A DNA stretch of 64,000 nucleotides. Source: Massalongia carnosa. Taxonomy: Eukaryota. The notes beneath the pieces are model-generated. The model was not told where the DNA came from, searched no databases, and saw only the letters and a list, made by a program, of their open reading frames with translations. Of this stretch, positions 16,899 to 52,769 are shown one piece after another (the first letter of the stretch is position 1; every line of letters begins with the position of its first letter). The DNA lies in the NCBI GenBank assembly GCA_965645245.1, contig OZ287081.1, forward strand, positions 1,054,001 through 1,118,000, read 5' to 3'. Both the position numbers and the translations under genes were made by a program.

Positions 16899-17725
16899 AA
16901 TCAGCAAAAAGCCAACCCCCAAAACATCGGTACCCTATATTTTGATATACTGAAACTTTCCCAACTTATTCTCCTCATTCTTCTCATTCATTTGAGCCTA
17001 CCAGAAGCTAAAACCTATCAGAATTGGGTACAGGAGAGCTCTCCCACTGCTCCTGCAGAGTTTTCCTCGCCGTCTGTCCGCCCCTTCACCAAAAAGCGCG
17101 TCCAAAAAATCTACAAAACACAAAAACACCAACAACAACATCAAAAATCGCTCGATTTTCGATAATTCTTCGGTTTAATTGTCGCATAAATCTCATCTAT
17201 TATCACAAAAATTATCTACAAAATATCATCACTGTCGCGTAACTGTACAACCTGTTCTCGAGACAACAAAACTTCTTGGTGTTCATTTGAAATTTAAGGT
17301 TACCGGTACCGTATACACCATTCCATTTTGGGTTTTTTCGATTTTCGTTGAACTGCCGACCAACAATCTGCTCAAACGAAGGGGAAAAACGTCTGAAATA
17401 GGGTTAAACCAAAGGCCCTGTTTCAGGCTAACCAGAATAGGAAGTCTCCTCTCTCTCATTGTACTTGATTTTTATTTCTGGATCAAAAACATTTTTAAAA
17501 AAAAAAAATTTTCTGTTCGATCGTAAAATTCTTATTATATTCCATATATCGTAGTGTCAAGGTAAACAGTTAAATAAGATCTATTGCCTAAGCGAGGAAC
17601 GGTCTATTTTAACTCGACTAGGATTTATTTGACTTGTTATTGTCAAATAAATAGGGTTTGGAAAGCAAGAGTCTTTAGACCAGTAAATCGGCGTAAAAAC
17701 ATCTCTATTCTGACTATTACGTCCA

Positions 17726-20700: not shown

Positions 20701-21570
20701 CGAGGCCGTGGTGGTAGATTGCCATGGAGTGTAAGGCGGACTCCTGTGGAGACGCCAAGGAACTCTATATGGGATCTACTGGCCTACTCGGAGCTACTGG
20801 ATCTCTTGATGGTTCAAGAGAGGTAGCAGGAGGCACGGCTCGCTGGACGCAGCTTGAGCTAGGCTCCCTTGTGTAAAATTCAGCTTCAACCTTTATTACT
20901 ACGTTGGTAGTGATGTCGGCTGAATGAACCTACATGACCTCGTTGTCTAGACCTTGTGTCTAGAGGCAGGTCCGCGGTGTAGCGAGGTATTCAGTCGGAG
21001 GTAACCTTCCATCACTAGGTAGTGGTGACGGCGAAATGAAGCTACATAGCCTGAGGCATGTAGTGAGGGATCTAGCCGGGGGTAGAATTGTTCTACCTTG
21101 CAAGGGAAGATCTAGAAAGCTGCTCGAGGCTGACTAGATAATCCAGCGAACGCCGAGTTCGTGGATGGATCATGAGGGATGGTTGGATGTAATGCGATAA
21201 AGTCGGATGTGGATTGCAAGGCTGTAATGCTCGCAAGACTCCCAAGGCTTGCAAGGCTCCTAAGGCTCCAAGGCTCCCAAGGCTATAGGCTTAGGGTGAG
21301 TAGGATAAATATCAGAACGAATCTTGTAGTATTCGTTAGCAATTAGTCTTTATTCTATGAACAACCTACGTTTGGGTCTCGGACGAGATCTCTTGGTCTA
21401 AGCACTTCCACATCCATTAGTTCTTTGGATCACATATACTCTCGGAGACTAGCACGTAGTAGCTATCTTCCTCCACTCACGCTGAGCATTTCCCCTTTCG
21501 AGATCAGTGTCGCTCGTGATTAGCTTACTGGTCTCGTAGCCCATTACACTCCCACAACCGAGTCCTGACA
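17726..21570. mobile_element. Long (~1.25 kb net) solo-LTR-like insertion, itself split by LINE-B
   Basis: TGTAAG...CTGACA termini; degenerate 5-bp TSD GTCCA/TTCCG (GTCCG in the uninterrupted LINE); internal (CAAGGCTCC)n-like repeat ~21228-21290; no ORF. Confidence 0.7.
17759..20341 (-). mobile_element. LINE subfamily B, 5'-truncated, open 771-aa RT-RNase H frame (17993-20308)
   Basis: 14-bp TSD GGAAGACGAATAGT (17745-17758, 20342-20355); protein diverged from A. Confidence 0.95.
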
Positions 21571-21650
21571 TTCCGGGGAACGTCAGAATAAACTATTTGG
21601 GGGCGATAAAGGGGATATAGCAAAGGCAACATCGATTTATTTATAAAATC

Positions 21651-30170: not shown

Positions 30171-30666
30171 TGTAATAGCGCGGCAATACAGGACTGCGCT
30201 AGCTCCTGGGATGACTCACCCAAGAAGACCGGGTGACTGATAATCCGGATGCTTGGTCATGATAAGGCGGATAGCAATACTAAGCCATCAGCAATCAGCC
30301 TTACCAGTTTATTAGGCAGCAACTGAAGCTATTCAGATAAGCCTCGATCTCATGGTAGGCCTGGGACGCCTAGGAGACCTCAGCTGAAGGCAACAAGGCT
30401 ATCTGCTAGAACTCAGCTGAAGGCAACAAGGTTATCTGCTAGACCTCAGCTGAAGGCAGCAAGGCTATCTATTAGACCTCAGCTGAAGGCAACAAGGCAG
30501 ACAGGTAACCAGACAAGTAGTTAGTAAATAGGACCCCAAGGGGTATATAGAAAGCTCGATTCCCATCTTCAGGGAATCATCTTTGAGCTTTAGCACCTAC
30601 CAATCTATTAGCAGTCACACTGAGCATTATAACCCATAAGGACTAGTGTCTACTGTCCCTCTCATA
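30171..30666 (+). repeat. 5' LTR (33-bp tandem repeat 30375-~30497; TATA-like box ~30544)
   Basis: Near-identical to 36174-36669. Confidence 0.95.
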
Positions 30667-30766
30667 ATTCTAAAAGCTCCATATCTTAGGATAGCTTGGT
30701 CCGACTGTTGATAGTTCAATCCTATCACACCTACCGTCCAAAAAATTCAAACTATTTATCGTCAAC

Positions 30767-31921
30767 ATGAACACACGAGGACGAAGCGGCCAGAATTCGG
30801 CCAATCCCACGTCCAATCAGGGTGATGACCTACTGGACTACGATACGCTGGAACAAACACCACCAAACCAGCTAATCGACGAGATTAGAGCCATGCAGGC
30901 CCATTTGACCGAACAGACAGCAGCCATGCAGGCCCAGGCCACCTTGTTGACTCAGCAAAGTACCCGTCTCGCTGCCAATGAAAGGGAATTAGAACGACTG
31001 CACGAGGAAAGAGAGTCTCGTCGTCCTCGCTCCATGGAACGATCTGTCAGGTATAACCTCAAAGCTAAGTCGCCCGACCCGTATTATGGCAAGGACCATA
31101 AGACCTTGTTCGAATTCACCAGACAATGCGAGGCTGTCTTTAACACTAGTGGCATGCCTGAAACGGAACAAGATCGTCGTATAGCCTATGCAGGCAGCTA
31201 CCTTCGAGACACCCCTAGCGACAATTGGCATGAGATACTATCACGAGGGGGTCATCTGAATCTTACCTGGAAGGAGTTCAAAAAGAACCTCATGAATCAA
31301 CTAGGCTCTACAGAAGTTTTCAAAGATCGAACCTGGATGCAGTACCATCATGCACAACAACGTCCCAATGATACTATTCAATCCTTTGCGGCCTACTTAC
31401 AACGCCTACGAACAATATTAGCCGATGCAGATCCGGAACATCCTATTACCGAAGAACAGATGGTCCAGAAGCTTCGTACGGGAGTCATACCAATAATTCG
31501 GAATTCCTTAGCACTAGGTCATCGACATCCCGCTACCATAGCGGAATTCATCAGTGATGCACAACTAGCTAAGGGAGCGGCTGTTTTGCCATCATCAACA
31601 GGTAGAGGCTACTCCAAGCGGGAGCAAGGTGCCCCGGCTTCTAACGATCAGGGCCGCCGAGAACCATATCCAACTAATCATCGCGGAGGTCGAGGCGGAA
31701 GAGGTCATCGAGGTAGTCACCACGGAAGAGGCAATAGAGGCGGAAGAGGCCGAGGCGGCAGGAATGCGGCTCCGGCTGTTACTAGCGCGCCGTCGACCAA
31801 TAGCAATGCCATTCCGCTAGGCACTGTGACCGAGATACAAGACAATAACAAAAATAGCTGCTATAATTGTGGATCCCTCGAACATTGGGTAAAAGACTGT
31901 CCCCATCCAAAAAAAGCATAG
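30767..31921 (+). CDS. gag: Gag with RGG region and CCHC knuckle
   Basis: 384-aa open frame; PDPYYG...; CYNCGSLEHWVKDC. Confidence 0.92.
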   Translation: MNTRGRSGQNSANPTSNQGDDLLDYDTLEQTPPNQLIDEIRAMQAHLTEQTAAMQAQATLLTQQSTRLAANERELERLHEERESRRPRSMERSVRYNLKAKSPDPYYGKDHKTLFEFTRQCEAVFNTSGMPETEQDRRIAYAGSYLRDTPSDNWHEILSRGGHLNLTWKEFKKNLMNQLGSTEVFKDRTWMQYHHAQQRPNDTIQSFAAYLQRLRTILADADPEHPITEEQMVQKLRTGVIPIIRNSLALGHRHPATIAEFISDAQLAKGAAVLPSSTGRGYSKREQGAPASNDQGRREPYPTNHRGGRGGRGHRGSHHGRGNRGGRGRGGRNAAPAVTSAPSTNSNAIPLGTVTEIQDNNKNSCYNCGSLEHWVKDCPHPKKA

Positions 31922-34900
31922 TCGCCGCTGCTGCCTCCCTACCGGCGACTACTATCAAAGAGGCATCGGCAAGTCCTAAGACATTGGAAGTCGCACCCTG
32001 CATAGAGTACGAAATAACACACGCTAAAGAAACAGCAAAAGCACTAATTGACAGCGGAAGTGAAGTTAACCTTATTTCTAGAGCTTACGCAAATATATGC
32101 GCTCTGACAGTGTTACACTCCAGCGTCAGTTTGGAAGCTATTAATCACCAGCAAGTCATGACACATGGCATGGGTCTGTTGGTGTTCGGGGTAACTGATC
32201 AATTAGGTCAGCAACGTTTCTTTGAGGAAACCTTCCTAATAGCAGATATACCTCATAATATCGTTTTGGGCATGCCATTCCTGCAGCTAGCCAATCCCGA
32301 TATCGATTGGTCAGCAAGGACCCTGAATTGGCGAGAACTAAGCGTTCAATCGGCCCTGATGACTACTCATCGGATAGAGATTATAGAACCAGAAGTCTTC
32401 ATAGAAGAGGCGTTATCAGAAGATACACCGACCTACGTGGTCCATGCTAAGGCGCTAGGTGTAGATAACATCCATTCGAGCCGTCGAGCTAGAATAGCCT
32501 CAGTGAAGGTACAAGAAATCAAGGTCCCTGAGGCTTATAAGGATTTCGCAGATGTCTTTTCGGAAGATAGTGCAGCCGAGCTACCAGAGCACGGGCTACA
32601 TGATCATGCGATCGACCTCGTGGATGGAAAGCAGCCTCCATATGGACCTATTTATAGCCTATCAGAAACAGAGCTCACAGTGCTAAGGGCCTACCTCGAT
32701 GCTCACCTGGCTAATGGGTTTATCCGGCCATCTACCTCACCAGCTGGAGCTCCTATTCTCTTCGTGCCTAAGGCAAATGGTACCCTGAGGCTCTGCGTGG
32801 ATTATAGGGGTCTGAACAATCTGAGAGTTAAAAATCGCTACCCGCTACCATTAGTAGGCGAGTCTTTAGATCGACTAGGACGGGCCAAACAGTACACCCA
32901 ATTGGATTTGACTGCAGCCTATAATCGCATCAGAATTAAGAAAGGCGACGAATAGAAGACAGCCTTTCGCACCCGATATGGCCATTTCGAATACTGCGTC
33001 ATGCCGTTCGGATTATCCAATGCTCCGGCCTCCTTCCAAGCCTATATCAATAAAGCGTTGGCACTAAAACTGGATGTCTTCTGCATCGTTTATTTGGATG
33101 ATATACTGATCTATACCGAACAGAAGGGTAAGGCCCATGAAGATGCTGTGCGATGGGTGTTAGAACAACTCCGCAAGCATGGCTTATTTTGTAACTTACA
33201 AAAATGCCGATTCAGCACCGACGAAGTCGAATTCCTAGGCTATGTCATCAATCCTAAGGGTGTTTATATGCGAAAAGATCGCATCCAAGCAGTGCAAAAT
33301 TGGCCACGGCCCACATGCGTACGCGATGTACAGGTGTTCATAGGCTTCGCGAATTTCTATAGACGATTCATTCGTGGGTTCAGTAAAATAGCAGGGCCAC
33401 TTACCGCTATGCTTAAAACAAAGCCCGCTAATCATAGACAGAAAGCACCTAAGGGTGTCGAAAGCGAGTTCCTTACGGAGGAAGCTCTATAGGCTTTTGA
33501 GAAGCTGAAAAAGTCGTTCATAGAGGCCCCGGTACTAAGGCATTACGATGCTAGTAAACCAGTACGCGTGGAAACCGATGCGTCAGGTTATGCTATTGGC
33601 GGCATATTGGCTCAGCAAGATGACGAGGGACAATGGTACCCTGTTGCCTATTACTCACGCAAGATGCTACCGGCTGAGCGTAATTACGAGACCTATGATG
33701 CTGAACTATTAGCGATAGTCGAGGCCTTCAAAATTTGGAGACATTACCTTGAGGGGTCGTCTCACGAAATTCTCGTGTTGACTGATCACAATAACCTTAC
33801 GAGGTTTATAGATACCAAGCGCCTAAGCGGCAGGCAAGTAAGGTAGGCTCAAGAGCTTTCCAGGTATAATTTCCGCATCGATTATCGTCAGGGTAAGAGG
33901 AACCCAGCCGATGGGCTGTCAAGACCTCCTACCGCTGGCGATGATGATGGCGAAGTGCTGGTTGAAAACCGCAAAACGCTCCACCTTTTGCAGACATCCC
34001 TAGCGGATAAGAACGCACGCGTTTGTCTAATGAGGGCAATGTCAGGGGAGTCGTTAGATGATGCTTCTGGCCCGACGGGGTCTCACCACGGTGAAATATG
34101 GAAGATCATAACATGCGGAACATTGGTTGTTCCGAAGGTGAAGGCATACTGGAGTTCATTGCGAAACTCTCTCGCACAGCGCGAGTCACCTTATACTCAA
34201 CCCGCTTCTAGGGGAGTATTAGAGCGTCTTCCTGAGTTGCAACAGGTTGACGAGGTCGCTATCACTGTTCGGAAAAGGTTAGCTACCTTGAAAGACAGTG
34301 ACGTGTCGGGGACACAGGAGGTGGCGCCCTCGAGCGAGCCATGGTCGGACTCGGACCACTGTCTATTCCATGAAGGAAAGGCCTACATCCCAGCCTCCTT
34401 ACGAGGAGAAATTCTTGAGTTAAATCATGATGATCCGCTGGCAGGGCACTTCGGGAAAGACAAGACGATTGAGCTAGTGAGTAAAAAGTACTACTGGCCA
34501 TCGATGAAGTCAGACATAGCACGCTATGTAGAGGGTTGCGACGTCTGCATGAGTAGCAAAGCTACGAGGCATAAGCCATATGGAAACTTGCAGTCGTTGC
34601 CTATACCAACTCATAAGTGGAAGGACATTACGATAGACTTCGTCACTGGCTTACCTAAGAGTAAGGACTGGAGGGGAGTTGATTATGACTCCATCCTAGT
34701 CGTCGTTGATAGGCTCACCAAGATGGTGCACTATAAGGCAGTGAAGAAAACGCTGACTGCTGAACAGTTAGCTGAAGTGCTAAGGCACTGCGTGTTCAAG
34801 TATCACGGCCTACCTGACTCCATAGTCACCGATCGGGGCTCGCTATTTACATCAAACTTCTGGTTATCCCTATGCTATTACATGAAGATAAAGCGTAGGC

Positions 34901-35796
34901 TAAGCACAGCCTTCCATCCACAAACAGACGGTCAGACAGAACGTCAAAATAGTACCATGGAAGCTTACCTTAGGTCTTACTGCCGTTTCGAGCAAGATGA
35001 CTGGGTGCAATGGCTCCCTACCGCTGAATTTGCATACAATAACACCCGTCATTCAAGCACTAAGCTCACCCCGTTCGAGGTTAATATAGGCTACCACCCA
35101 AGGATGAGTTATGAAGATAACCAAGACCCTCGATCGAAGTCGAAGACAGCTGAGGAACAGGCTAAAAATCTACACGATTTGTTAGCAGAGTTGAAAAATA
35201 ACCTGCACTTAGCCCAAGACAATCAAGCCAAATATCACAATAGAACGGTGAAAGAACGTTGCTACGCTCCCGATGATATGGTTTGGCTAAACAGCAAATA
35301 TATTAAGACGAAAAGGAACAAGAAGCTTGAGCATAAGTTCTTGGGTCCCTTTAAGGTGTTGAGGCCTGTAGGCCCTCAAGCTTACGAGCTAGAACTTCCG
35401 AAAAGTTGGAAAATACACCCAGTCTTTCATGTGTCTCTGCTGGAAAGAGACAAAACTAGAAGTGAGGTAGTAGACGAACAAATGGCTGAACAGCTTGAAT
35501 TCGAAGAGGATGACATGCAAGAGTATGAAGTAGAGTGCATACGAGATAGTGCAGTCTATGCAAAAGAAGCAGAAGACGGACGACCGGCTGGATTATATTA
35601 TCTAGTGCATTGGAAAGGTTATCCCGACGCGGAAGACACATGGGAGCCCGTCGCCGGCGTCAAACATCTACGAAAGCTATTGAGGGAATTTCATGAGAAA
35701 AATCCTACCAAGCCAACAGCAAAGTCCACCCCTCAGGCCACTAGGACTCCCTCATTAGCGAAAGAAACAGGACGACGCACAAAGAGGACTAAATAA
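31867..35796 (+). pseudogene. pol: Pol (protease, RT, RNase H, integrase, chromodomain) in -1 frame, three premature TAG stops
   Basis: LIDSGS, LCVDYRGLN, YLDDILI, ETDAS, HHCC, DFVTGLP, TDRGS, HPQTDGQTE, GPF, YLVHWKGY...TWEP; stops at 32953, 33490 and 33844. Confidence 0.95.
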
Positions 35797-36173
35797 GGCC
35801 AGCACTCTTTTCCTACCACCTGCCCACGAAAAAAGGTTGGAGGTTTTTAATGAGGCTGCGCTAGGAGCTCAGCAATGTGTTGCAGTAACGTCATGCTCGA
35901 TTCCATCCAGGCCAGTAGCTCTTTTCCTAGCACCTTCCCTAGAAGGGAGGTGGGAGGTTTTTAATGAGGCTGAGCCAGAGCATCAAGTTATGTTATCCTA
36001 ATATCTTCCAAGCTCTTACAAATCCCAACTCTTGCTAGCCTGCATTCAAGCGGCCATCGACGTTAAAGCCATCGGCACGATTAACCGCTTGCAATTACCA
36101 CGCGATGATGGGCTGAACGCACGAACTACCAGGGATGACTTTCGCAGGAGCTCATTACTAGAAGGGAGGTAAT

Positions 36174-36669
36174 TGTAATAGCGCGGCAATACAGGACTGC
36201 GCTAGCTCCTGGGATGACTCACCCAAGAAGACCGGGTGACTGATAATCCGGATGCTTAGTCATGATAAGGCGGATAGCAATACTAAGCCATCAGCAATCA
36301 GCCTTACCAGTTTATTAGGCAGCAACTGAAGCTATTCAGATAAGCCTCGATCTCATGGGAGGCCTGGGACGCCTAGGAGACCTCAGCTAAAGGCAACAAG
36401 GCTATCTGCTAGACCTCAGCTGAAGGCAATAAGGTTATCTGCTAGACCTCAGCTGAAGGCAGCAAGGCTATCTACTAGACCTCAGCTGAAGGCAACAAGG
36501 CAGACAGGTAACCAGACAAGTAGTTAGTAAATAGGACCCCAAGGGGTATATAGAAAGCTCGATTCCCATCTTCAGGGAATCAGCTTTTAGCTTTAGCACC
36601 TACCAATCTATTAGCAGTCACACTGAGCATTATAACCCATAAGGACTAGTGTCTACTGTCCCTCTCATA
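36174..36669 (+). repeat. 3' LTR
   Basis: Follows the PPT; followed by TSD CAAGT. Confidence 0.95.
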
Positions 36670-37287
36670 CAAGTACAGGCGATTTTTCTATAAGTCCTAC
36701 TGACGAGAGCCCCGGAGATTCCATTTGGGGAGGGTTTTGAGGAGTGCTCAGGGGTGTTCCCGGGGAGGCTCTCGATATAATTCGTCGAGTCCTAGGGAGT
36801 ACCGGATTGAACATGATTTAATAAATAAATCGATATGCCTTTTCAATATCCCTTTTATCACCACCAAATAATTTATTCTGATGTTCCCCGGACGTACTAA
36901 TCAGAATAGAAATTTTCACCAATTTACAGGTCTAACGACTCTTGCTTTCCTATCCCTATTTATATGACAATAACTCGTCAAATAAATCCTATTCGGGTTA
37001 AAATAGACCGTTCCTCGCTTAGGCAGTAAATCTTATTTAACCCTTTACCAGACACTACAATAGTTGAAAATAATGAAAGTTTTTTTTTGCTTTTTTGCGA
37101 TAAAAATAAATCTAAGGCAAGGTAAGATAATAAGAGACATCCTATTCTGATTAATCTGAAATAGGATCTTTGGTATAATCCTATTCCAGACGTTTTTCCC
37201 CTTCTTTTCAGTGATCTGTTGACCGGCCGTTCAATGGAGATCGATAAAGCCTGAAATGGTATATGCAGAAATTATACGTGAAATATA

Positions 37288-38622
37288 CTGTCACGCGGGG
37301 GACAAAAAAAAAACTACACCAAAATTTAACCGGGTTCAACCCCCCACCAAAACACAAGCAATTTCCATACAATTTTGATGGGATAATCACCATTTCAACA
37401 ACCAGTCATCCAATTCATTCAATCTATTCAATAACCAGTCATTTTACCCTCACCATCCAAAACAGCTCTCAATCTATCTGGCATAGTAGACACCCGTTCA
37501 TTGATAAATGCCTGGGAAACGTTCGCCCACCCCTCATAAATTAGCCCCTTGGTCGTATCATCATCCAATGAGGATATTTTTTTAAATATTGCTTCGGGGC
37601 CTGCCAGCAATTTTCTATGGGGGCCAAATCAGGTGAACATGGACAGTTGAAATAGTGCTTCAGATCGTTGTTCTGCTTCCAAGTGCGTACAATGTTTGAT
37701 TTGCCTGGTCCATGTCCAGAATCACCGTCTTCTTCTAAGACGAAATCGTGTTTTGCTTCAATCCAGGGCTTCATAATAGGCTCCAATATAGAGTCGATAT
37801 AGACTCGTTGACTCATCTTTCCATTGGAGTTTCCAGGAACTCTGTAAAAGTAGATATCTGACTTGAAGTCATGACCTGCAGCAGCCCAACAGTGATGTCT
37901 CTTCTTGACGGCCTCGTCTGGTTCATCTGCTTCTTGAATACAATCATGACAATAACGTTCACCTAATCTTCGTATGATGCGTAATTTGCCCTGAGGTCCC
38001 CATCCAAAGTGCACTTCGTCACTAAATCGAACTTGTTTCCAGTCTTCTGCATTTGGATATCTAGAAAGCATAGCATCTGACCACTTCATACGAAGCTTTC
38101 TTGTCTTCTCGTTCACCCATCCCTTTCTGCACGCAATGCATTTGTGATAATCCATGGTGCCCATGATTCGTTGAATGGTTTTGCCACTGCAGTCTAGGCC
38201 TACTTCGAAGCCCAATTGCTCCCATGTAAGAGCGCGCGCCTCCATATCTTCTTCTTCCAATAGCCGTTCCATTTCTCTAATCAATTTAGGCGTAACAATT
38301 TTGTGACGCCCACGAGCTTCAGAAACATCGGAATTATTATGATGACGGCGTGATGAGGCTCCTTCACGCAGGTATGCATAGCCCCTCGTACGTTCCACAT
38401 CAAATGTGCGAAAAACATCCTCTTTGTGATAAGAAATGCCTTGCTTTTCGCAAAATTCAACGGCTCCCTGAATTTTAGCTTTGGTAGGAGTCTCGATATG
38501 TTTAGAATTCATAATAATGATAATTATCCCATCAAAATCGTATTTAAATTGCTTGTGTTTTGGTGGGGAGTTGAGCCCGGTTAAATTTTGGTGTAGTTTT
38601 TTTTTTGTCCGCCGCGTGACTG
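37288..38622 (-). mobile_element. Tc1/mariner DNA transposon with ~105-bp TIRs
   Basis: TA on both flanks; TIR C(A/T)GTCACGCGG..ACAAAAAAAAAACTACACC... Confidence 0.95.
37428..38512 (-). pseudogene. Tc1-type DDE transposase, one frameshift near 37567
   Basis: MNSKHIETP...; FSDE, EDGD, SPDLAPIEN; C-terminus ...GKMTGY in another frame. Confidence 0.9.
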
Positions 38623-38766
38623 TAAAAATTTGTGCTTGCGGAAGTTCCCGTAACCTTAAATGAGAAATGAACTTCAAAAAAGTTGGTCGTCGCGACAGTT
38701 GTTGTACAGTACCGCGACAGTAGATATTTTTAGTAGATAATTCTTGTAGTAATAATTGAGGGTAAT

Positions 38767-39304
38767 TGTCAGGGCATAGAAGGAATAAAGGCTCAGCTAA
38801 CTAAGCGGGGCTTAGTTCTACGGCTAGGCTTAGTCATATGGAAAGCAGTTGGTCTGCGTTACGCGGCTGGTATCTACTGCCGAGAGTATAGTACGAGCGA
38901 TCGAGATATACGAGGATGCTCGTACGATTAGTGAGCGGATGGTACGATACAGTCAGCACAGTATCCACGATACAGTCAGCACAGTGTCTACGATACAGTC
39001 AGCACAGTGTCTACGATACAGTCAGCACAGTGTCCACGATGCAGTCAGCAGAGTGTTTAGCCGGCTTATCCGGTAGGAGTAATGGGCGGTCAAGATAGTT
39101 ACAGTATCAAGGGCCCAGAGGGTCAAGGGCTTCGGTCCGGGTATATAAGGAGGCTGCTCGAGGGAGATGCAATCTTCAACGATTAGTCTTCCGCTTTACC
39201 TACATACTTCTTTTAGTATATTAGTATAGCAAATCATTAGTGTCTTCACATTGTCACATATCCCTAGGCCTGGTGTCTGCTAATCGCCAGGTCTGACTCT
39301 TACA
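38767..39304 (+). mobile_element. Solo LTR (538 bp)
   Basis: TGTCAG...CTTACA; perfect TSD GTAAT (38762-66, 39305-09); 23-bp tandem repeat x5 (38945-~39059); TATATAA at ~39142. Confidence 0.93.
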
Positions 39305-39593
39305 GTAATGCGACAACAGAACAGAAAAAAGTGAGAAAAAGAGCGATTTTTGGTGATATTGTTGGTATTTGTTGTTTTTATAACTTCTTGAGCGCGCTTT
39401 ATCACGTCTGTCGCGTGCGACCAGCAGAAAATCTCTGCTGGAGCTTTGCTAGAGCTCTCCTACACTCAATCTGAGTCCGTTTTTGCTCTGGAGGAGCTCA
39501 AATGACTGAGAAAAAGATATTCAATTGACTGTGAAAGTTATAGAGTATCAAAAGTTGCGGTACTTGTGTTTCGATAGGTGGTCTTTGGTGCTT

Positions 39594-40532
39594 CCTGCGT
39601 TTTCATCGATTGACAAATTTGTAAATGCATTTTCGATTTTAGATTTTGCAAATGTTAAATCAATAACTGATAAAGAACTTCCAGAATAGGCGTAGTATGT
39701 TCATAAATCAGGTTTGTTTATCAAACTACACCTGTTTAATTTCAACCATTTGACAAGATTTTCTGATCTAATTTCTTGTTGGATTTTCGAATTCTACCAT
39801 TTATGATGTGCATTGAAATCTCCACATATGATAAATTGATAAGTTGATGTAGGTTGATACTTGATTAAAAGTCGATCGATCGTGTATGTTTCTCGATCAC
39901 TTTGGCTTTTTCGTTATAGATATTGAAAATCTGCACTTTTCGAACGTCATCAATTGTAATTTCAATAATTTGCATATCGGAATCGTCAATAAGGTCAGTT
40001 CTAGGCGTACATCGCAGTTTGTGATTGCATTTTATGACAAATATAGCTACACTCGAGCGATAAGTCGCTAATTTTGGCATAATACATGTAAATAACGGAT
40101 GTGATATTGTTTTCTGATCTCGTGTCCATGGTTCCTGAAACAAAACAATATCAATTTGATTTGATAAAGCATATTCCAAACACAAAATCATGGCATTCGT
40201 TGACTTTGCACAATTATATTAAATAAAGTTAACATTTTAATTATTATCGATGTTTGTCAACGAATGTTATCCTGTTATTACAAAGCGGCTAGTTCGTCAG
40301 TCGATTTTCAAATATTTAACGATATAACCATTTCACAATTTTCATTATTGGATTGATGATTCTTGTTGCGATTCGCGCATTTGACGACGACTTGTGTACA
40401 CGCAATTTTCGATTTGCATGTTGTGCATTCATGATTGCGTGTTTCATGATTTTGCGCACATATGCTGCATTACGCTTGACTTTTGCATTGATAATGCTTG
40501 TTTCCTAATTTTTGACAATTAATGCATTGTGT
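39594..40532 (-). mobile_element. LINE subfamily C fragment (ORF1 C-terminus plus APE); continues at 61957-62055
   Basis: LFQEPW APE motif; breaks at TAATGCATTGTGT (40520-32), which recurs at 61957-69. Confidence 0.88.
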
Positions 40533-43454: not shown

Positions 43455-45316
43455 TCAAGCGGCGACTTGGAGCGGCTGGCGTGCACGATAGAAGCTAAGT
43501 CTAGAATAGAGATAGATCAACAGCTACATAAAGGGTTTGCGGACTCAGCGGATGTAGTACGACGCACATTCGCTGTGTAAGCGCATGGGGTGCGCGTAGA
43601 CAGCGTCGACACAGTTAAGGCACAAGCTACCATCAAGAGTCTAGAGAAACAGAATGAGCAGCTTCATCCGGGACTGCAGATCTGCCGCATTGCATGGACC
43701 AAAAGGGCAGTTTCAGAAGCCAAGATTCACTCCTCGCTAATAGTTGAAGTAGCCACCGCAGAGACGGCAAACAGACTGATTAAAGAGGGTCTTCTACAGG
43801 ATTACTCGCATAGAATATGTGAGTACTTCGATAAGAACTGTCGTATAAAACAGTGCTTTTACTGCCAGAAGTACGGACATACGGGCACCGCATGCAAGAA
43901 CGCCCTTCGATGCGCAGGCTGCGCTTAAGGACATCGCTCGCAAGCATGCAAAGCGCCTGCGGATCGACGCAAGTGCGCCGTGTGCGGCGGGAATCATCGG
44001 GCGTGGTCTCACCTCTGCCTCGTCCGAAAAGAGGAGAAGGAGCGCCTGAATGGCACCTGGAAGAACCGACCAACGTGGCATGTCGAGACGGAGGCGGTTG
44101 TCCTTCCTCGACAAAGTCAGACAGTAGAACGACGCAATAACGCCGGCGACACGTACACCTGCGCCAACACGTCATTAGGCAGTGCGTGAGCGAAGCCGCT
44201 CGCTAACCCCCGAGGCCGAGGAGCTGAACGAGTTCACTCAGGATGGCTCCACGATTATGAGCCTCGACATTAATACAGTCACCAACAGCTTTCCGGCTCT
44301 CTACTCAACATACGGCAAGAGGGCACACTCGCAGGGACCTGGAGAAGGCTCCTCGCTATCTCCTACTAGGCGCAGAGCTAGCTTGTCGGTTGTACCTGAC
44401 TCACAGCCGGCCTCGTCTAAGCCAACCCCCAAAATATCGGTACCCTATATTTTGATATACTGAAACTTTCCCAACTTATTCTCCTCATTCTTCTCATTCA
44501 TTTGAGCCTACCAGAAGCTTAAACCCATCAGAATTGGGTACAGGAGAGCTCTTCCACTGCTCCTGCAGAGTTTTCCTCGCGGTCTGTCCGCCCCTTAACC
44601 AAAAAGCGCGTCCAAAAAATCTACAAAACACAAAAACACCAACAACAACGTCAAAAATCGCTCGATTTTCGATATTTCTTCGGTTTAATTGTCGCATAGA
44701 TCTCATCTATTATCACAAAAATTATCTACAAAATATCATCACTGTCGCGTAACTGTACAACCTGTTCTCGAGAAAACAAAACTTCTTGGTGTTCATTTGA
44801 AATTTAAGGTTACCGGTACCGTATACACTATTCCATTTTGGGTTTTTTCGATTTTCGTTGAACTGCCGACCAACAATCTGCTGAAACGAAGGGGAAAAAC
44901 GTCTGAAATAGGGTTAAACCAAAGGCCCTGTTTCAGGCTAACCAGAATAGGAAGTCTCCTCTCTCTCATTGTACTTGATTTTTATTTCTGGATCAAAAAC
45001 ATTTTTAAAAAAAAAAAAAAAAAATTTTTCTGTTCGATCGTAAAATTCTTATTATATTCCATATATCGTAGTGTCAAGGTAAAGAGTTAAATAAGATCTA
45101 TTGCCTAAGCGAGGAACGGTCTATTTTAACTCGACTAGGATTTATTTGACTTGTTATTGTCAAATAAATAGGGTTTGGAAAGCAAGAGTCTTTAGACCAG
45201 TAAATCGGTGTAAAAACTCTCTATTCTGACTATTACGTCCGGGGAACGTCAGAATAAATTATTTGGTGGCGATAAAGGGGATATAGCAAAGGCAACATCG
45301 ATTTATTTATAAATCC

Positions 45317-46900
45317 ATGTTTAACGCGGTAATGAACCGCCGGAATATACCAAGGACACCACCCCCAGCCGGTCCCGCCCCCCTATCGACCCCTTACCCG
45401 GCCCCCCCCCGACACTCCCCGGGACCATCTCCGGTGGCGTTGATAGGGAGCTCTCCCCGTCTTGAACCTATGGATCAAACTCGCGAATATGCATCAGCCC
45501 CGTCAACACCGACACCAAAGGCAACGAAATTCCCATCGGGTCCATTTTCCACTATCTTGCCGATGCCTTCATTGAACTTAAACATTGGATCAAGCCCACC
45601 AATCAAACGAAATAAAAGACGCACATTTGACGAACATTCGAGAGATAGCCAAGAAGCGATCAATCGGGCAAATTCAATTGAGCTTCTAAAGTCGGCCAAA
45701 AAAGCATTATTGCAATCATTTGTACTGGACCAAAATCCACAAACGGCTATCGTAATTGACAACGTTAATTCGTTGATTTCGAAAAAATCAATCAATTTAC
45801 AAACATCCTTAGATATGATTAACTATAAAATGGGCATAGTACTTGATCAAACTAGTCATCTTTCCTCAAAAACGTCACAACAACAAACGACTCCACTACA
45901 GAATGGTCCAAAAATCCAAAAACCGGTTGTTAAATTGAACGAAAATTCAATTATCGAAAATCAGACCATTCGCAAAGGAGCTACCGGGGTCTCTGGTAAC
46001 AATGTTAGCACAACCGGTACATGGAGTCAAATGCTTGGAAAAGCAACCGAAAACTCCGAAAATTGGACTACTATTAAAAGGAAAAGTTCGAATCATAATT
46101 CGAACAAAGTCGATCGATTTGATGCAATCAAGGCCAGACGACTCGTGATTTCACCGAAAAATCCTGACGCTCAAATCGACTCTATGAAGTTGCGTGATGA
46201 AATTAACGCGCTATTAAAAAACGCAAATTTAAACATCATCGTCAATACTGTTGAAAAGTCCAAAACCGGTCAGAATATCGTTCTCACCACTAGCCCTGAC
46301 AACAATGCCGAAGAATTGTTGAAAAATAAATCTTCATGGGAACACATTTTCGAATCACAAAGAATTCGAAAAGACGAATCCTGGTTTAAAGTCATAGCAC
46401 ACGGAGTAAATATCTCGTTATTCGATAATAACATGCAATATTTGCAAACCGAAATCGAAAAATACAATTCGAATATGCAACTATGCGATTTACCAAGATG
46501 GCTTGCTCGGGATCGTCAAAACAAAGTCACGTCGTCGGTAGTTTTGACTTTCAATAATCAAAATCAAGCGTCAAACGCGTTAAGAGGCGTGAATATCGCG
46601 GGTAGACATTGTGACACGGAAATATTTGCTTCCGTTCGTCTAAACACGCAATGTATTAATTGTCAGAAATTTGGACATAAGCATTATCAATGCAAAAGTC
46701 CGGCAAAATGCAATATATGCGCACAAAGTCATGAAACGCATAATCATGAATGCACAACATGCAAGTCTAAAATCGCATGCGCACATGCAATTCTGAAATG
46801 CGTCAATTGCAACAAAAATCATCAATCGAACGATATAGGTTGCGAAATGTTTATCTCGCTAAATCCTAGAAAATCGAATGATGAATTAATGCTTGGTTAA
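45317..46900 (+). CDS. LINE-A ORF1, intact 527 aa
   Basis: Pro-rich N-terminus; CINCQKFGHKHYQC, CNICAQSH, CVNCNKNH knuckles; stop overlaps the ORF2 ATG (TAATG). Confidence 0.92.
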   Translation: MFNAVMNRRNIPRTPPPAGPAPLSTPYPAPPRHSPGPSPVALIGSSPRLEPMDQTREYASAPSTPTPKATKFPSGPFSTILPMPSLNLNIGSSPPIKRNKRRTFDEHSRDSQEAINRANSIELLKSAKKALLQSFVLDQNPQTAIVIDNVNSLISKKSINLQTSLDMINYKMGIVLDQTSHLSSKTSQQQTTPLQNGPKIQKPVVKLNENSIIENQTIRKGATGVSGNNVSTTGTWSQMLGKATENSENWTTIKRKSSNHNSNKVDRFDAIKARRLVISPKNPDAQIDSMKLRDEINALLKNANLNIIVNTVEKSKTGQNIVLTTSPDNNAEELLKNKSSWEHIFESQRIRKDESWFKVIAHGVNISLFDNNMQYLQTEIEKYNSNMQLCDLPRWLARDRQNKVTSSVVLTFNNQNQASNALRGVNIAGRHCDTEIFASVRLNTQCINCQKFGHKHYQCKSPAKCNICAQSHETHNHECTTCKSKIACAHAILKCVNCNKNHQSNDIGCEMFISLNPRKSNDELMLG

Positions 46901-49900
46901 TGGCGGGACAACATTCGTTGACAAATATCGAAAATACACAAAATGTCAAATTTATTCAACATAATTGTGCAAAGTCAACGAATGCAATGATTTCGTGTCT
47001 GGAATATGCAGTATTAAATCGTGTTGATATTGTTTTATTTCAGGAACCATGGACGCGAGATCAAAAAACAATTTCCCATCCGTCATTCACATGTATTATG
47101 CCGAAAATAGCGACTTATCGGCCGAGAGTAGCTATATTCGTTACAAAATGCAATCCAAAATTACAATGCACGCCTAGAACGGATCTTATAAACGATACTG
47201 ATCTGCAAATTATCGAAATTACAATTGATGAAGTTCGAAAAGTGCAGATCTTTAACCTTTACAATGAAAAAAGTCTAAACGATCGAGAAACATATACAAT
47301 CGATCGACTTTTAGTTAAATATCATCCTATATCAACTGATCAATTTGTCATATGTGGAGATTTCAATGCACATCATAGCTGGTGGAATTCGAAGATTCAA
47401 AATGCAATTCGATCAGAAAATCTAGTCAAATGGTTAAAATTAAACAAATGTAGTTTGATAAATACGCCTGATCTATATACATTTTTTGCTCATTCAGGAA
47501 ACTCTTCATCTATTATTGATTTAACATTTGCAAATTCTAAAATCGAAAACGCAATTACAAATTGGTCAATCGATGAAAACGCAGTCACGGGTTCAGATCA
47601 TGAAGTTATTCGATTTGAACTTATCGCGTCTTTCAAGAACTTGACGTCACACGCAACCGCATTATCGAATAAATACAACTGCAATAAAGCCGATTGGGAT
47701 AAATTCGCGAAGTTTCTAGACGAAAATGCAGTAAACTACGAGTCCCAAATACAAAGTCTATTGAACAATTATCAATTTGATGAATCAGCGTTATATTTGC
47801 AAAACGTTATCAAAAACGCGGCTGAAATGTTTATTCCGAAGACAAAAATATGCGCAAAATCGAAAAATTGGTGGTCGCAAGATTTATCCGGACTTCGAAA
47901 AATCATGTGTAGACATCGTCGAGAATGGAAGAATAATCCGTCCTATTTTAGTCATCAAACATTTAGACATAGTCGAATCGAGTACTTTCATGCAATTCGA
48001 AAAGCGAAACAGCAAACTTGGTTGGCTTTCCTCGAAAACGCAGCGAATAAAGACGTATTTACAGCTTATAAATACACTAAACCGTGCATGTTCGAAAAAA
48101 TACCACCTATTCAATATGAAAATAAGTTAAATGTTCAATTCGATCACAAATGCGATGCGTTTGTGTCAGCAATGTACACAAAAAACCCGTTCACGGATGA
48201 TAATATTGAAGATTTAACGAATCAAGACAGCGAAAATGACAACAATTGGCCGAATTTAACCGAAAATGAATTGCAAAATGCGATTAGTTTGTTTAATCCA
48301 AAGAAATCATGTGGACCTGATGCAATCAATTTCACAATAATTCAAAAATCGTTTCAACCATTGAAAAACGTGTTTTTTACTATTTATTCTAAGTTTATAC
48401 AAATCGGTTTTCACCCGTTATGTTGGCGAACAGGACTCGGTGCTGTTTTAAAAAAAACCTAATAAACCAGACTACTCGCTGCCAAAATCATATCGAATTA
48501 TTACCTTACTGAATTTTCTTGGTAAAATTGCGGAGAAAATAGTTGCTAATCGACTAGCCTACCTCGGCGAAAATTCGAGCTTGTTAGATACCGAACAAAT
48601 GGGCGGACGGAAAAATCATTCTGCAACCGATGCGGTAATGAACGTCGTTCATGATATCGAAATCGCTAACCGAAACAAAAACGTTTTATCATGTCTATTA
48701 CTCGATGTCAAAGGAGCATTTGACTTTGTTTCGATTAATCAATTGCTTAATGTCATGAAAAAGCTGCATTTATCTCGCATAGTTATTCAATGGGTCAAGC
48801 ATTTTATGACAAAACGATCGATCAATTTGATATTCGATGAACACAAAAGCAAAACGTACTATATCGAATCTGGAATTCCACAAGGTTCACCAATTTCGCC
48901 AATTCTATTTCTGATTTATATTCGTTACTTATTTCCGAAAATACGAATGAAATTCAATGCTCATTCACCTAGCTTTATAGACGATGTTGCAATATATTTC
49001 GAAAATAAAACTGCCACACAGAATTGCAAAGAAATCGAAATTATCGTCAAAACAGCTTTTGATTGGGCCGCAACGAATAATGTCAAATTTGATGACGACA
49101 AATCTGAGTTGATTCACTTCGAAAAGTCAAGAAATGCATCAAAAGACAAAGTGCAATTACCAAACGGGACAATACTAGAACCGAAAAATTCTGTCAAATG
49201 GTTAGGAGTCTGGTTAGACCGAAAACTAAATTACAAAAAACACGTCGAAACGCGAATTGCTTCTGCAAATCGATCGTTTTTCGCAATTCAAAATTTGATG
49301 AAGTCTGAATGGGGACTAAAGCCAACTGCATGCAGACAGCTCTATCTGTCATGTATTATTCCTATTTCGGACTATGGCTCAGAAATCTGGTATAACGGTC
49401 AAAAGAAATATGAAAAGCTATTTCAGAATCTGCAAAATCGAATGATTCGAAAGATTTTAGGCACATTCAAAACCACGCCTGTTCAGGCGATGGAAATTGA
49501 ATCGCATATTTTACCAGCCAAGCTACGATTGTTGATGAAAAATCAAAAATACGCAATTCGATTATTGAAGATTGCCGAAAATAATCCTATTTGTCAAAGA
49601 ATTCCCAGTACCTATTCTGTGAAATTCGAAAACATCGGTTTTGACACTAGTTTATGGAACAACAGATATGCTGAATGGAACGAAGACGAGAAAAAATCGA
49701 GTAAACCTCATCCTAGTCAGCTTATCCGTATTCTTCATTCCGTTTCGGATATAGTTCACAAAACTGATGAATTCGAATCAGTAAATAATTTCATCAAACC
49801 ATGGAAGCCGTCTTGTAAAATCAAGTTCCAAATCGAAAGATCCAAAGAAACAGCAAAGTCAAGTTATTAATCGACTTTATCAAAAATCCAATCAATAAAC

Positions 49901-50914
49901 GCAGGTAAATCGCGAATTTTACTCTATACCGATGGATCAAAAACCGAGTTTTCAACTTCCGCTGTCACATTTGCACCAATTATGCGAAATTGGAACAATT
50001 TCACCGATAACTTCAATCGTTTTATCGAAAAAGATTGTCTCCTCAAACATCATACGATTTCGAAAAGCTGGAAATTAAACAAACAGTCAAGCGTTAAAAA
50101 CGCTGAACTCTATGCGATACTACAAGCAATAAAATGGGCATACAAATTGACAATTGCGAATATTCTCTTCAATTTGGAAAAAACGATTTGGATTTTTTCC
50201 GATAGCATAAACGCGATAAACGAAATTCAGAACTTGACAAATCATACTTACGCAAAACAAATTCGAAAATTCTCGAAATGCTTATTCGGAAACAATTATC
50301 AGGTGGTTCTACAATGGATTCCTAGTCATTCGAAAATCGTCGAAAATGAAATTGCAGATAAAGCAGCAAAAGCGGGACATAGTCGAATCCTAGTCGAGTC
50401 TTCGATAATAACATTTGATTATGTAAAGGGTCAAATAAATCGAAATATGTTAGCCACATGGGAGAATCAATGGCAACAATGCAAGTCAAAAGGCAAATAC
50501 TATGAGAAATTCGAAATGCAGCCGGGCAAATCGAGTTTTTATTATCTGTCGAATAATTGTTCGAAATTAATATTTGCGACTATTATGCAAATGAAATTCG
50601 GACACGGTTATTTTCGATCATATCTGCACCGATTGAAAGATTATAATTCGTCAAAATGCACAGGGCGCTGCAACGAACGTCAAACGCCAGAACACTTATT
50701 GATGAATTGCATACATTATTCAAATGAAATCCTAAACATGAAACAAAATATCGATACCACAATTACTTTAAAAATGTTGTTTAATACTAGGATCGGAAAT
50801 AATATTTTGATTAAATTTATTGTTGATAACAAAATCGCGACTAGAAAATGGATGCTAGGTCAGCTCGATGACGAAAATATCGAAACGGGAGGTTGGGGAG
50901 AGATCGAACAGTAA
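46900..50914 (+). pseudogene. LINE-A ORF2 (APE-RT-RNase H) with two lesions
   Basis: +1 A in the run at 48450-57 (possibly a sequencing homopolymer error) and TAT>TAA at 49868-70. Confidence 0.93.
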
Positions 50915-52769
50915 AATTAGAAATGATTTATGCTGGAATATTTACGAGCTTTACAAAAACAAATTGTAAAATCGATATTTCGATTACTAAAGGTTGTTAC
51001 TAACACGGAGTTAAAACGGGGCAATATTGACGATAGATAGTTGGGTTATAAAGGGTTGATTTATTTGTAAAATAAAACCATATCTTAAAATAGTTTAGTG
51101 TCATAACCTTAGGTTGAATACACTTAATGAATAAATAAAAATAAAAAAAGCCGGCCTCGTCTTCTCATAGGTCTTACCGCGCCCTTGCACTCCTTCGTTA
51201 CCCCATGCCTCCTCCGGCGCTGAAGGCGCATTCGCAGACGCAGCCGCAGCCCAAGCCGAAGCGCGGCCGCCCGCCGCTTCACAAAATCAGCGGCAAAGTC
51301 TCCCGAAATACCCAGTAATGGCGGGACAAACATCTATTTCAATATTACAGTATAACAACAGAAAGAGCAAGAACCGGGTCATGACCCCTCTACTGGCGGA
51401 CAAGAGAATAGAGGAGTATGACGTCTTAGCTATTCAGGAACCATGACGCAACCCCAGCGTTTGCACGTCGCACAATCCGTTCAATTCCGGCATTTATCTT
51501 CCGTTTATGTCGAATGAGAATATAGGTGCGTGTTTCTATAATAATAAAAGATTAGATGTGAATTCTTGGGCTGTGGACATCCTCACGCCGGACGTGTGCA
51601 CAATAAGACTAAGAATATATGCGAGTAATGAGCCACGATACATCAATATACATAACGTCTACTGTCAATTACCCGTCGTGCATTCTTCTCGCCAGCTACT
51701 CGAAAGCGTAAAGGCGGTGAGACGAAAGATTCATGAGCGGGATAAAGAGGAATACGTCTTGCTGGGAGACTTTAATCTGCATCACCCTCTGTGGAGTGGC
51801 CCCTCCAGGCCTACACAACATCAAGCGGCGGACCAGCTTCTCGACGTCGTTCGTGCGGCATCTATGCAGCTCACTCTACCTAGTGGCTCTATCACTTGGG
51901 AGGCACGCAGATCCACGAGCATGATAGACCTAGTATTCATGACCGACTCCCTGAGACACAGTCTGCTGCACTGTTATACTCGTCAGGAGATGAACCAATC
52001 GTCCAATCACATACCCGTCTCTACCAAGCTGACGCTAGAGGTGGAGCTGAGCGTGAAACGTCGCAAGAGAGCATGGAAGCGAGCCGACGAAGAAAATCTG
52101 GCGAAAAGTCTTCGTCTACCCGTAGTCACGGAGTGGCCGCGTACCCCGCAAGCCATAGAAGACTAAGCGAATCGACTACAGTCCGCTATTATTGACGCAA
52201 TAAATGAGACCTTTCCCTAGAAGGCTCCCTGCCCCGTCTCTAAACCCTTCTGGAACGAGCGTTGCGCTGTCGCTGTGGCGGAGACTCGACGTCGAAGACG
52301 CGAGTGGACGAGGTGGAAGACAGAGGCAACGTGGCGCAGATATCTCAAATCGGCGGATAAAAAGAAGAAGATCATCATCAAGTTCGCCGCCGAATGGGTT
52401 GGGTTATTAAAATGAGAGCCCAACCCAATAGGTTTTGGGTTGGGTTGGGTTATCGTTGGGTTACCCAACAGAAAAGGGTACTGATATATGGACACCCTAT
52501 CCGCTACCTAGACACACCCTCTCCGGCTACCTAGACACACCCCTTCCGGATTTTCAATCATTATAGATTTATTTTAATGACTATCACAAAGTAAAATGTG
52601 GATTATAGATAAAACATTTATTTCGTTGACGTCGAACTACCATAAAGACTATCACAAATTCGTATGCTTTCTTCTATCGAATATCGAAGTATGTCGCCCA
52701 TTTATCGCTTCCTATTCAAAACTCGTAAAGAAAGTCTCTCGCCATCTCTTCCTTTACTCTCCACTTTCT

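Follow-up and report, generated by a model that had tools for sequence, protein, structure and literature searches.

Pair-preserving hairpins in the 5′ leader of a LINE from Massalongia carnosa point to a working RNA element

Introduction

Does the 5′ untranslated region (5′UTR) of a long interspersed nuclear element (LINE) act only as DNA, or does it also work as a structured RNA? The question is raised by a 64,000-nt stretch of the Massalongia carnosa genome (assembly GCA_965645245.1, contig OZ287081.1, positions 1,054,001 to 1,118,000, forward strand), hereafter the window. It contains a full-length LINE, copy A (44419..51149, plus strand), whose leader precedes the first open reading frame (ORF1). 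Within this leader lies a block, 44901-45256, with four hairpins that we call H1 to H4. An earlier note on this DNA had described the block as a conserved structured RNA in a LINE 5′UTR that shows compensatory changes relative to a second copy, B. We recovered, at the same coordinates, all four hairpins, their invariant loops and every motif that the note had quoted. Copy B is indeed on the minus strand, and the block does lie in a 5′UTR, inside the 898-nt leader of an element bounded by a target-site duplication (TSD).

Here we ask what maintains this block. We find that its hairpins have kept their pairing through nearly all stem substitutions that separate the two subfamilies. This points to a working RNA element, although two subfamilies are too few for proof. 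The reading that we favour, and to which we give about an even chance, is that the block forms an RNA domain in the sense strand of the leader, with stems that position invariant loop segments for a protein.

Results

Most substitutions in the hairpins preserve pairing

A blastn comparison with the window found the block region in exactly three copies: A, A′ and B. Copy A′ (16909..17724, plus strand) is 97% identical to A, belongs to the same subfamily and adds little independent information. Copy B (36801..37263, minus strand), 76.8% identical to A by blastn, represents a second subfamily and comprises the ORF1-proximal leader and the start of ORF1.

H1 (44901-44938, plus strand, in A; 37191-37154, minus strand, in B) is the longest hairpin by every criterion, with 15 bp, 4 of them G-U, and an 8-nt loop. 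Seven substitutions distinguish its A and B versions, one pair having changed on both sides, and none is disruptive: 15 of 15 pairs are kept (simulation P = 0.0033). The predicted energy of the sense strand is -21.5 kcal/mol in A and -18.8 in B, against -11.1 and -11.8 for the antisense strand. Because H1 depends on G-U pairs, it is about 10 (A) or 7 (B) kcal/mol more stable on the sense strand. The same strand preference is seen in the sliding window bearing H1, which has a z-score of -3.5 on the sense and +0.7 on the antisense strand.

H2 (A, 45084-45132, plus; B, 37043-36995, minus) consists of an 8-bp outer and a 5-bp inner stem with an invariant 22-nt loop segment, and its energy is -13.7 kcal/mol in both copies. 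It has changed by one double substitution (A-U to G-C) and one C-G to U-G replacement (simulation P = 0.033). Its outermost pair is mismatched in A′, and its specificity for the sense strand is weak. H3 (A, 45140-45169, plus; B, 36987-36958, minus) has 11 perfect, A/U-rich base pairs in A and energies of -9.9 (A) and -8.3 (B) kcal/mol. H4 (A, 45222-45256, plus; B, 36908-36874, minus) places 9 bp around an invariant 14-nt loop segment (-9.2 kcal/mol in A, -7.4 in B) and shows one double change, C-G to U-A. One further hairpin appears in the fold of A, at 45186-45221. We rejected it as not conserved, B having a 4-nt deletion and A′ an A-C mismatch there.

Taken over the three-copy alignment, the 48 named pairs include 3 double changes that remain paired and 6 one-sided changes accommodated through G-U. 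Only 2 cells are unpaired, one for B in H3 and one for A′ at the outermost pair of H2. Between A and B alone the named stems differ by 13 substitutions, of which 12 are transitions and 12 keep pairing; the single broken pair is in H3. When these 13 substitutions were shuffled within the stem columns, a mean of 4.55 pairs were broken, and one or none was broken in 25 of 20000 trials. Moreover, hairpins of at least 8 contiguous bp defined from A alone (7 hairpins, with 22 substitutions) have 7 broken pairs against 12.5 expected, an outcome reached in 32 of 20000 trials. Other thresholds gave 89/20000 (at least 9 bp) and 602/20000 (10 bp). RNAfold also finds the sequence as a whole unusually stable: the z-score is -5.07 for the 441 nt of A and -3.07 for B, and none of 100 shuffles of either folds as well.

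Could mutation alone have produced this pattern? If the block were young because a 5′UTR module had recently been exchanged between subfamilies, by template switching or recombination, then pair-keeping might reflect nothing but transition-biased mutation. With transitions only, tolerance of G-U makes many stem changes look neutral. However, the substitution spectrum outside the stems is unbiased: transitions and transversions stand at 26:28 there and at 12:1 within the stems (Fisher P = 0.004). A simulation using the non-stem spectrum predicts 8.4 broken pairs, and 1 was observed (P = 0.00015).

The ORF1-proximal leader evolves slowly

The conservation of the leader is uneven. Identity between A and B is 69% over 44829-44880, 84.1% in the surroundings of H1 (44881-44943), 68% with 36 gapped columns in a variable, A-tract-bearing segment (44944-45060) and 88.0% over 45061-45316 (220 of 250 aligned columns). 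The A-tract itself (45007..45025, plus strand) has 19 A residues in A and 12 in A′ (17507-17518), so that its length varies between near-identical copies; in B it is an interrupted A-run.

The corresponding values within ORF1 are lower, 68.3% over 45464-46293 and 81% over 46301-47235, and blastn gave no A/B alignment for about the first 130 nt of ORF1. The claim that the block is better conserved than the ORF1 N-terminus thus holds, the comparison being 88.0% (45061-45316) with 68.3% (45464-46293). As a neutral yardstick we used four-fold degenerate sites, which differ between A and B at 36 of 72 positions in 45464-46293 and 24 of 68 in 46301-47235, or 43% overall. In 45061-45316, only 30 of 250 sites differ (12%), compared with 60 of the 140 four-fold sites (Fisher P = 1.7e-11). 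The surroundings of H1 and the segment from 45061 to the AUG therefore evolve about 3.5 times more slowly than four-fold sites and are under purifying selection. Between A and B, the ORF1-proximal leader is the slowest-evolving alignable part of the element.

The alternating identity along the leader (69%, 84%, 68%, 88% in successive segments) is a mosaic of the kind that module exchange would leave, and replacement of the promoter or 5′UTR is described as frequent in LINEs (PMC2881922, as far as the accessible part of that source goes). The conserved segments, however, coincide with hairpins and loops and do not form one contiguous young block. Selection on the leader is also evident from the depletion of AUG triplets in both subfamilies, described below. 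Recent exchange could therefore inflate the A/B identity but would not explain the pairing patterns, and as an account of the block that dispenses with function we consider it improbable.

A further, if shallow, comparison comes from outside the window. Run X6 yielded one full-length related contig, about 97.7% alike, and runs X7-X9 yielded short pieces only. The X6 contig has 12 substitutions in 44419-44900, 4 in 44901-45256, 0 in 45257-45316 and 9 in 45317-45700, which agrees with the A/B tendency, although the changes are too few to carry weight. Among its changes in the block, C45161 to T replaces G-C by G-U in H3, and another falls in the loop of H1. Position 45209 of A shows a T-to-C difference common to A′ (17700) and the X6 contig, which marks it as a shared subfamily variant and not private decay. 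This difference disrupts a pair of the non-conserved extra hairpin mentioned above.

The leader lacks AUG

The leader (44419..45316, plus strand) is ATG-free over its entire 898 nt, against 9.4 ATG expected, and 0 of 5000 dinucleotide shuffles reach zero. Neither half has any (0 versus 4.7 and 4.6 expected), the 482 nt upstream of the block included (0 versus 4.7). The antisense strand shows no depletion (13 versus 12.9 expected). The leader pieces of B contain 1 ATG in 776 nt, and the longest ATG-free stretch on the plus strand of the window contains the leader of A. On the minus strand, an ATG-free stretch near 56373 was considered as a further leader and rejected, since it is the antisense of an ORF. 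Depletion in both subfamilies shows that the leader is under selection. An AUG-free leader also implies, indirectly, that ribosomes most likely arrive at the start codon of ORF1 by cap-dependent scanning.

These results bear on the known systems to which the block had been likened, namely the 5′ ribozymes of R2 and L1Tc and domains resembling an internal ribosome entry site (IRES). A structured region directly upstream of ORF1 is what such a domain would look like, and poly(A)-binding protein might conceivably be recruited by the internal A-tract. However, an IRES would not require the absence of AUG, least of all in the 482 nt upstream of the block, and a wholly AUG-free leader is the signature of scanning. 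The ribozymes of R2 and L1Tc are terminal, according to the parts of PMC3774820 and PMC3185411 available to us, and the block does not begin until 483 nt into an element whose 5′ end is fixed by the TSD. The stability of the hairpins is modest as well. An Rfam cmscan of 44300-45500 with E-values up to 10 found no ribozyme or IRES family, and so no match to the nested double pseudoknot of HDV-like ribozymes; there were only three chance-level matches to long non-coding RNA or microRNA families. Both analogies are thus disfavoured, and we regard an IRES-like or ribozyme domain as very improbable.

RNA domain or promoter

The main rival places the function in the DNA: the block would be an internal promoter or regulatory region, possibly with an antisense promoter, conserved for the binding of transcription factors that drive or regulate transcription from position 1. 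Its hairpins would then be palindromes or incidental, and their pairing in RNA would play no part. It is compatible with the RNA reading, because the same DNA may double as part of an internal promoter. Most characterised LINE 5′UTRs hold internal RNA polymerase II promoters, as stated in the accessible part of PMC2881922. The block is also suitably placed for one, inside the copied 5′UTR and downstream of a 5′ terminus common to two insertions.

A number of our own results weigh against an RNA-level role, and several of them suit a promoter equally well. First, loops and spacers of the leader are conserved as well as the stems. As perfect palindromes, H3 and H4 favour neither strand. Beyond 45094 the antisense strand folds no worse than the sense strand: in windows covering 45094-45318, z is -4.4 and -3.2 antisense, compared with -2.1 and -1.6 sense. 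H3 has one mismatch in B and hence no covariation support. The pairing comparisons rest on two independent lineages, A and B, and the four named hairpins were picked with both in view. Tests free of that bias are weak. When hairpins are taken from B and assessed in A, no signal is seen (5632/20000). In shuffle control (a) of the pair counts, the observed values were reached in 30 of 500 shuffles, and the excess of hairpins with 8 bp or more is mild (7 versus 3.9 expected, a value reached by 19 of 300 shuffles). Span-limited single-sequence folds of the sense strand give P = 0.07-0.19. For whole minimum-free-energy folds, the sense-strand counts are 1640/20000 when A is folded and B tested and 214/20000 in the reverse case; those of the antisense strand, 573/20000 and 258/20000, are as good or better. 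In B, moreover, the minimum-free-energy fold replaces H4 with a long-range helix. The conservation of G residues (82% versus 74%, P = 0.08) is a hint at binding by the CCHC knuckles of the ORF1 protein (ORF1p) that does not reach significance. Finally, the human LINE-1 5′UTR is dispensable for retrotransposition given another promoter (PMC2881922, again from the part available).

The long-range helix deserves a closer description. In A, the 5′ arm of H4 has an alternative partner at 44944-44952, which can form 9 bp with 45220-45228. The counterpart in B joins 37154-37139 to 36911-36896 (minus strand) in 16 contiguous bp, the differences between A and B having lengthened it. It may be an alternative conformation or may have arisen by chance.

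Other observations fit a promoter poorly. The best-conserved part of the leader lies 640-900 nt from the start site and adjoins the ORF1 AUG. The first 300 nt (44419-44720, compared with 39290-39620 on the minus strand) contain only short conserved islands in otherwise diverged sequence; these islands are candidates for a core internal promoter. H1 keeps all its pairs through 7 substitutions by way of G-U, and such pairs are mismatches in DNA and in the antisense RNA. Recognition of half-sites by a protein predicts neither the three double changes nor the 12:1 excess of transitions in the stems. A dimeric protein would not regain binding to a palindrome whose two half-sites had both changed, and we infer from this that the double changes favour nucleic-acid pairing. 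We give the purely DNA-level explanation a limited but serious chance, clearly below that of the RNA domain.

With these points weighed, support for a conserved structure is good at H1, moderate at H2 and H4 and lacking at H3. The compensatory changes proposed in the earlier note are thus borne out by three double changes and by 12 of 13 pair-keeping substitutions, but not in H3, whose mismatch in B the note had passed over. Likewise, its proposal of an undescribed cis-acting RNA domain stands as far as conserved, pair-preserving hairpins without an Rfam family are concerned; covariation is not statistically established with two lineages.

The host element and its copies

Copy A is delimited by its TSD, its ORFs, Pfam matches and other copies in the window that are 96-99% identical. 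The TSD is a 13-bp sequence at 44406..44418, repeated as a perfect match at 51150..51162, immediately after the A-rich tail. Between them the element is ordered as leader, ORF1, ORF2 (with APE, reverse transcriptase (RT) and RNase H domains), 3′UTR and A-rich tail. The leader is 63% A+T, and the block occupies its positions 483-838, so that its end is 61 nt ahead of the ORF1 AUG.

ORF1 (45317..46900, plus strand) encodes 527 aa and has three CCHC-type Cys/His motifs at the C-terminus of its translation. A Pfam search with ORF1 gave no match, and none of its 17 homologues is named. ORF2 of copy A is broken into three frames and matches PF14529 (6.9e-20), PF03372, PF00078 (1.5e-25) and PF00075 (3.6e-08). 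The stop codon of ORF1 and the start codon of ORF2 overlap in a TAATG at 46896-46902. In the silkworm element SART1, an overlap of this type has been tied to termination-reinitiation (PMC2881922, in the part available).

The element behaves as an autonomous LINE: it lacks long terminal repeats (LTRs), ends in an A-rich 3′ tail, is flanked by a TSD and has many 5′-truncated copies with a common 3′ end. The nearest named relatives of its RT are ascomycete, a Leotiomycete fungus at 43% identity. Judged by domain architecture and nearest named matches, it is a Tad/I-like LINE with a CCHC ORF1 and an APE-RT-RNase H ORF2. The LINE family is young and the genome ascomycete-like.

The 5′ terminus of A′ (16909) is the same nucleotide as that of A, and the flank is different. 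A and A′ are two independent insertions, and as both begin at this nucleotide, upstream of the block, the block was part of the RNA from which they were copied. This counters, if indirectly, the possibility that transcripts start downstream of the block, which the earlier note had named as the outcome that would speak against it. A′ is interrupted inside the H4 loop by an insertion and continues at 21572. Within this insertion (17725-21571, about 3.8 kb), a minus-strand stretch at 17758-20342 that is 86% identical to A comes from the 3′ portion of a LINE of a third subfamily.

Copy B is more heavily broken up. Upstream pieces of its leader are found at 39515-39308 and 38760-38644 (minus strand), separated by two insertions (37264-38643 and 38761-39307). 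Its ORF1 resumes at 30163-29342 (minus strand), past an LTR retrotransposon nested within it on the plus strand (about 30200-36700), which has gag, protease, RT, integrase and a chromodomain-like C-terminus. The ORF1 piece of B is 95% identical to an intact 524-aa protein from elsewhere, to which ORF1 of A is 66-68% identical. Because the B piece is so close to an intact member of its subfamily, most of the A/B divergence arose between active lineages. The protein matches to ORF1 indicate four ORF1 subfamilies or more.

Searches beyond the window added little to the alignment. An exact 20-mer of the invariant H2 loop has 0 matches in metagenome, viral and genome contigs alike, and a search of genome and viral contigs with the close ORF1 alignment found no match. 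A more distant ORF1 group led to 4 metagenome loci, none with similarity to the leader; three of them have at most 236 nt of upstream sequence. In the fourth (metagenome contig L004, 1-2350), the region upstream of the ORF resembles the reverse complement of ORF1, perhaps through an inverted duplication or a chimeric assembly. A covariance model of H2 and H3 (98 positions), run with filters off on the window and the 4 loci, recovered only its three training copies, the next hit having E = 0.64. Pairing of the block with the 3′UTR, as in 5′-3′ cyclisation, was also sought: the longest complementary run is 11, under the shuffle mean of 12.1.

Discussion

We propose the following model. At least H1, and probably H2 and H4, would be kept as sense-RNA stem-loops of modest stability (-7 to -21 kcal/mol), weak enough for scanning ribosomes to pass. 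The stems would display invariant, G-containing single-stranded segments in a fixed arrangement, and the domain would most likely serve as a sequence-and-shape recognition site for a protein. A candidate partner is the element's own ORF1p or ORF2p, in which case a ribonucleoprotein (RNP) might assemble beside the site where ORF1p emerges; the CCHC ORF1p is an attractive candidate. Alternatively, the partner could be a host protein that adjusts translation or the stability of the RNA. By way of background, the R2 protein binds RNA from the R2 5′ end.

A more specific version of the proposal is suggested by retroviral packaging signals, short stem-loops near the first ORF whose G-containing loops are bound by the CCHC knuckles of nucleocapsid. 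The likeness to the leader stem-loops, which we draw from general background, is an analogy. By that analogy, the ORF1-proximal leader would be a packaging-signal-like platform: covarying stem-loops with invariant, G-containing loops would be bound by the three CCHC knuckles of ORF1p, providing a basis for cis-preference. The 22-nt segment of H2, the 14-nt segment of H4 and the G-runs flanking H1 would be the displayed segments, and the knuckles would bind as ORF1p emerges from the adjacent start codon. The competition between H4 and the long-range helix could then switch the RNA between translated and packaged conformations. LINEs differ from retroviruses in that they assemble RNPs by cis-preference and do not package virions, and we consider this version rather doubtful.

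How does the proposed domain compare with what is known from other LINEs? Human LINE-1 is also autonomous and has a leader of about 900 nt before ORF1, with an internal promoter in the same region. According to the part of PMC3141257 that was available, translation from that leader involves cap-dependent scanning with no sign of an IRES or shunting, which matches the AUG-free leader described here. The two leaders have no sequence relationship, however. That of human LINE-1 is GC-rich (PMC2881922, part of the text); the present one is A/U-rich and wholly AUG-free, and between the two subfamilies no other alignable part of the element is conserved as well as its ORF1-proximal third.

The hepatitis delta virus (HDV)-like ribozyme of R2 and the Pr77/L1TcRz of L1Tc are structured RNAs in the 5′ region of non-LTR elements, and L1Tc illustrates that one sequence can be both promoter and RNA element (PMC3383444, PMC3185411 and PMC3774820, each seen in part). 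Unlike the block, they occupy the 5′ terminus (in L1Tc, the first 77 nt) and cleave co-transcripts; the element described here has a defined 5′ end of its own, and the block is internal. A parallel in mode of action is the stem-loop in the 3′UTR of stringent-type LINEs, where a conserved stem and a sequence-specific loop are recognised by the element's own ORF2 protein (PMC4176376 and PMC5135761, from the parts available). That stem-loop is a cis recognition mark, the same mode as proposed here. It differs in lying at the 3′ end, at the start of reverse transcription, and in having experimentally demonstrated binding; the block lies on the 5′ side and its binding is a proposal.

Drosophila I factor and Neurospora Tad-type elements share the coding architecture of the present LINE, a CCHC ORF1 and an APE-RT-RNase H ORF2. 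The I-factor 5′UTR contains an internal promoter and regulatory sequences, going by the title of a reference in PMC2881922. In the literature searched, as far as its accessible text extends, no structured leader domain in Tad-like or powdery-mildew LINEs turned up. One powdery mildew has 80 LINE/Tad1 families and many antisense transcripts of transposable elements (TEs), as stated in the available part of PMC10648671, which does not mention leaders.

The 5′UTRs of LINEs are usually viewed as fast-evolving, replaceable promoters. A leader that is conserved and keeps its pairs would mean that it has a job at the RNA level. If the job consists in being recognised by proteins that the element encodes, it would bear on the long-standing question of how LINE proteins prefer their own RNA. 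Moreover, in TE-rich fungal genomes an AUG-free leader offers a simple sequence mark for full-length, recently active copies, and the conserved block is a good anchor for sorting subfamilies.

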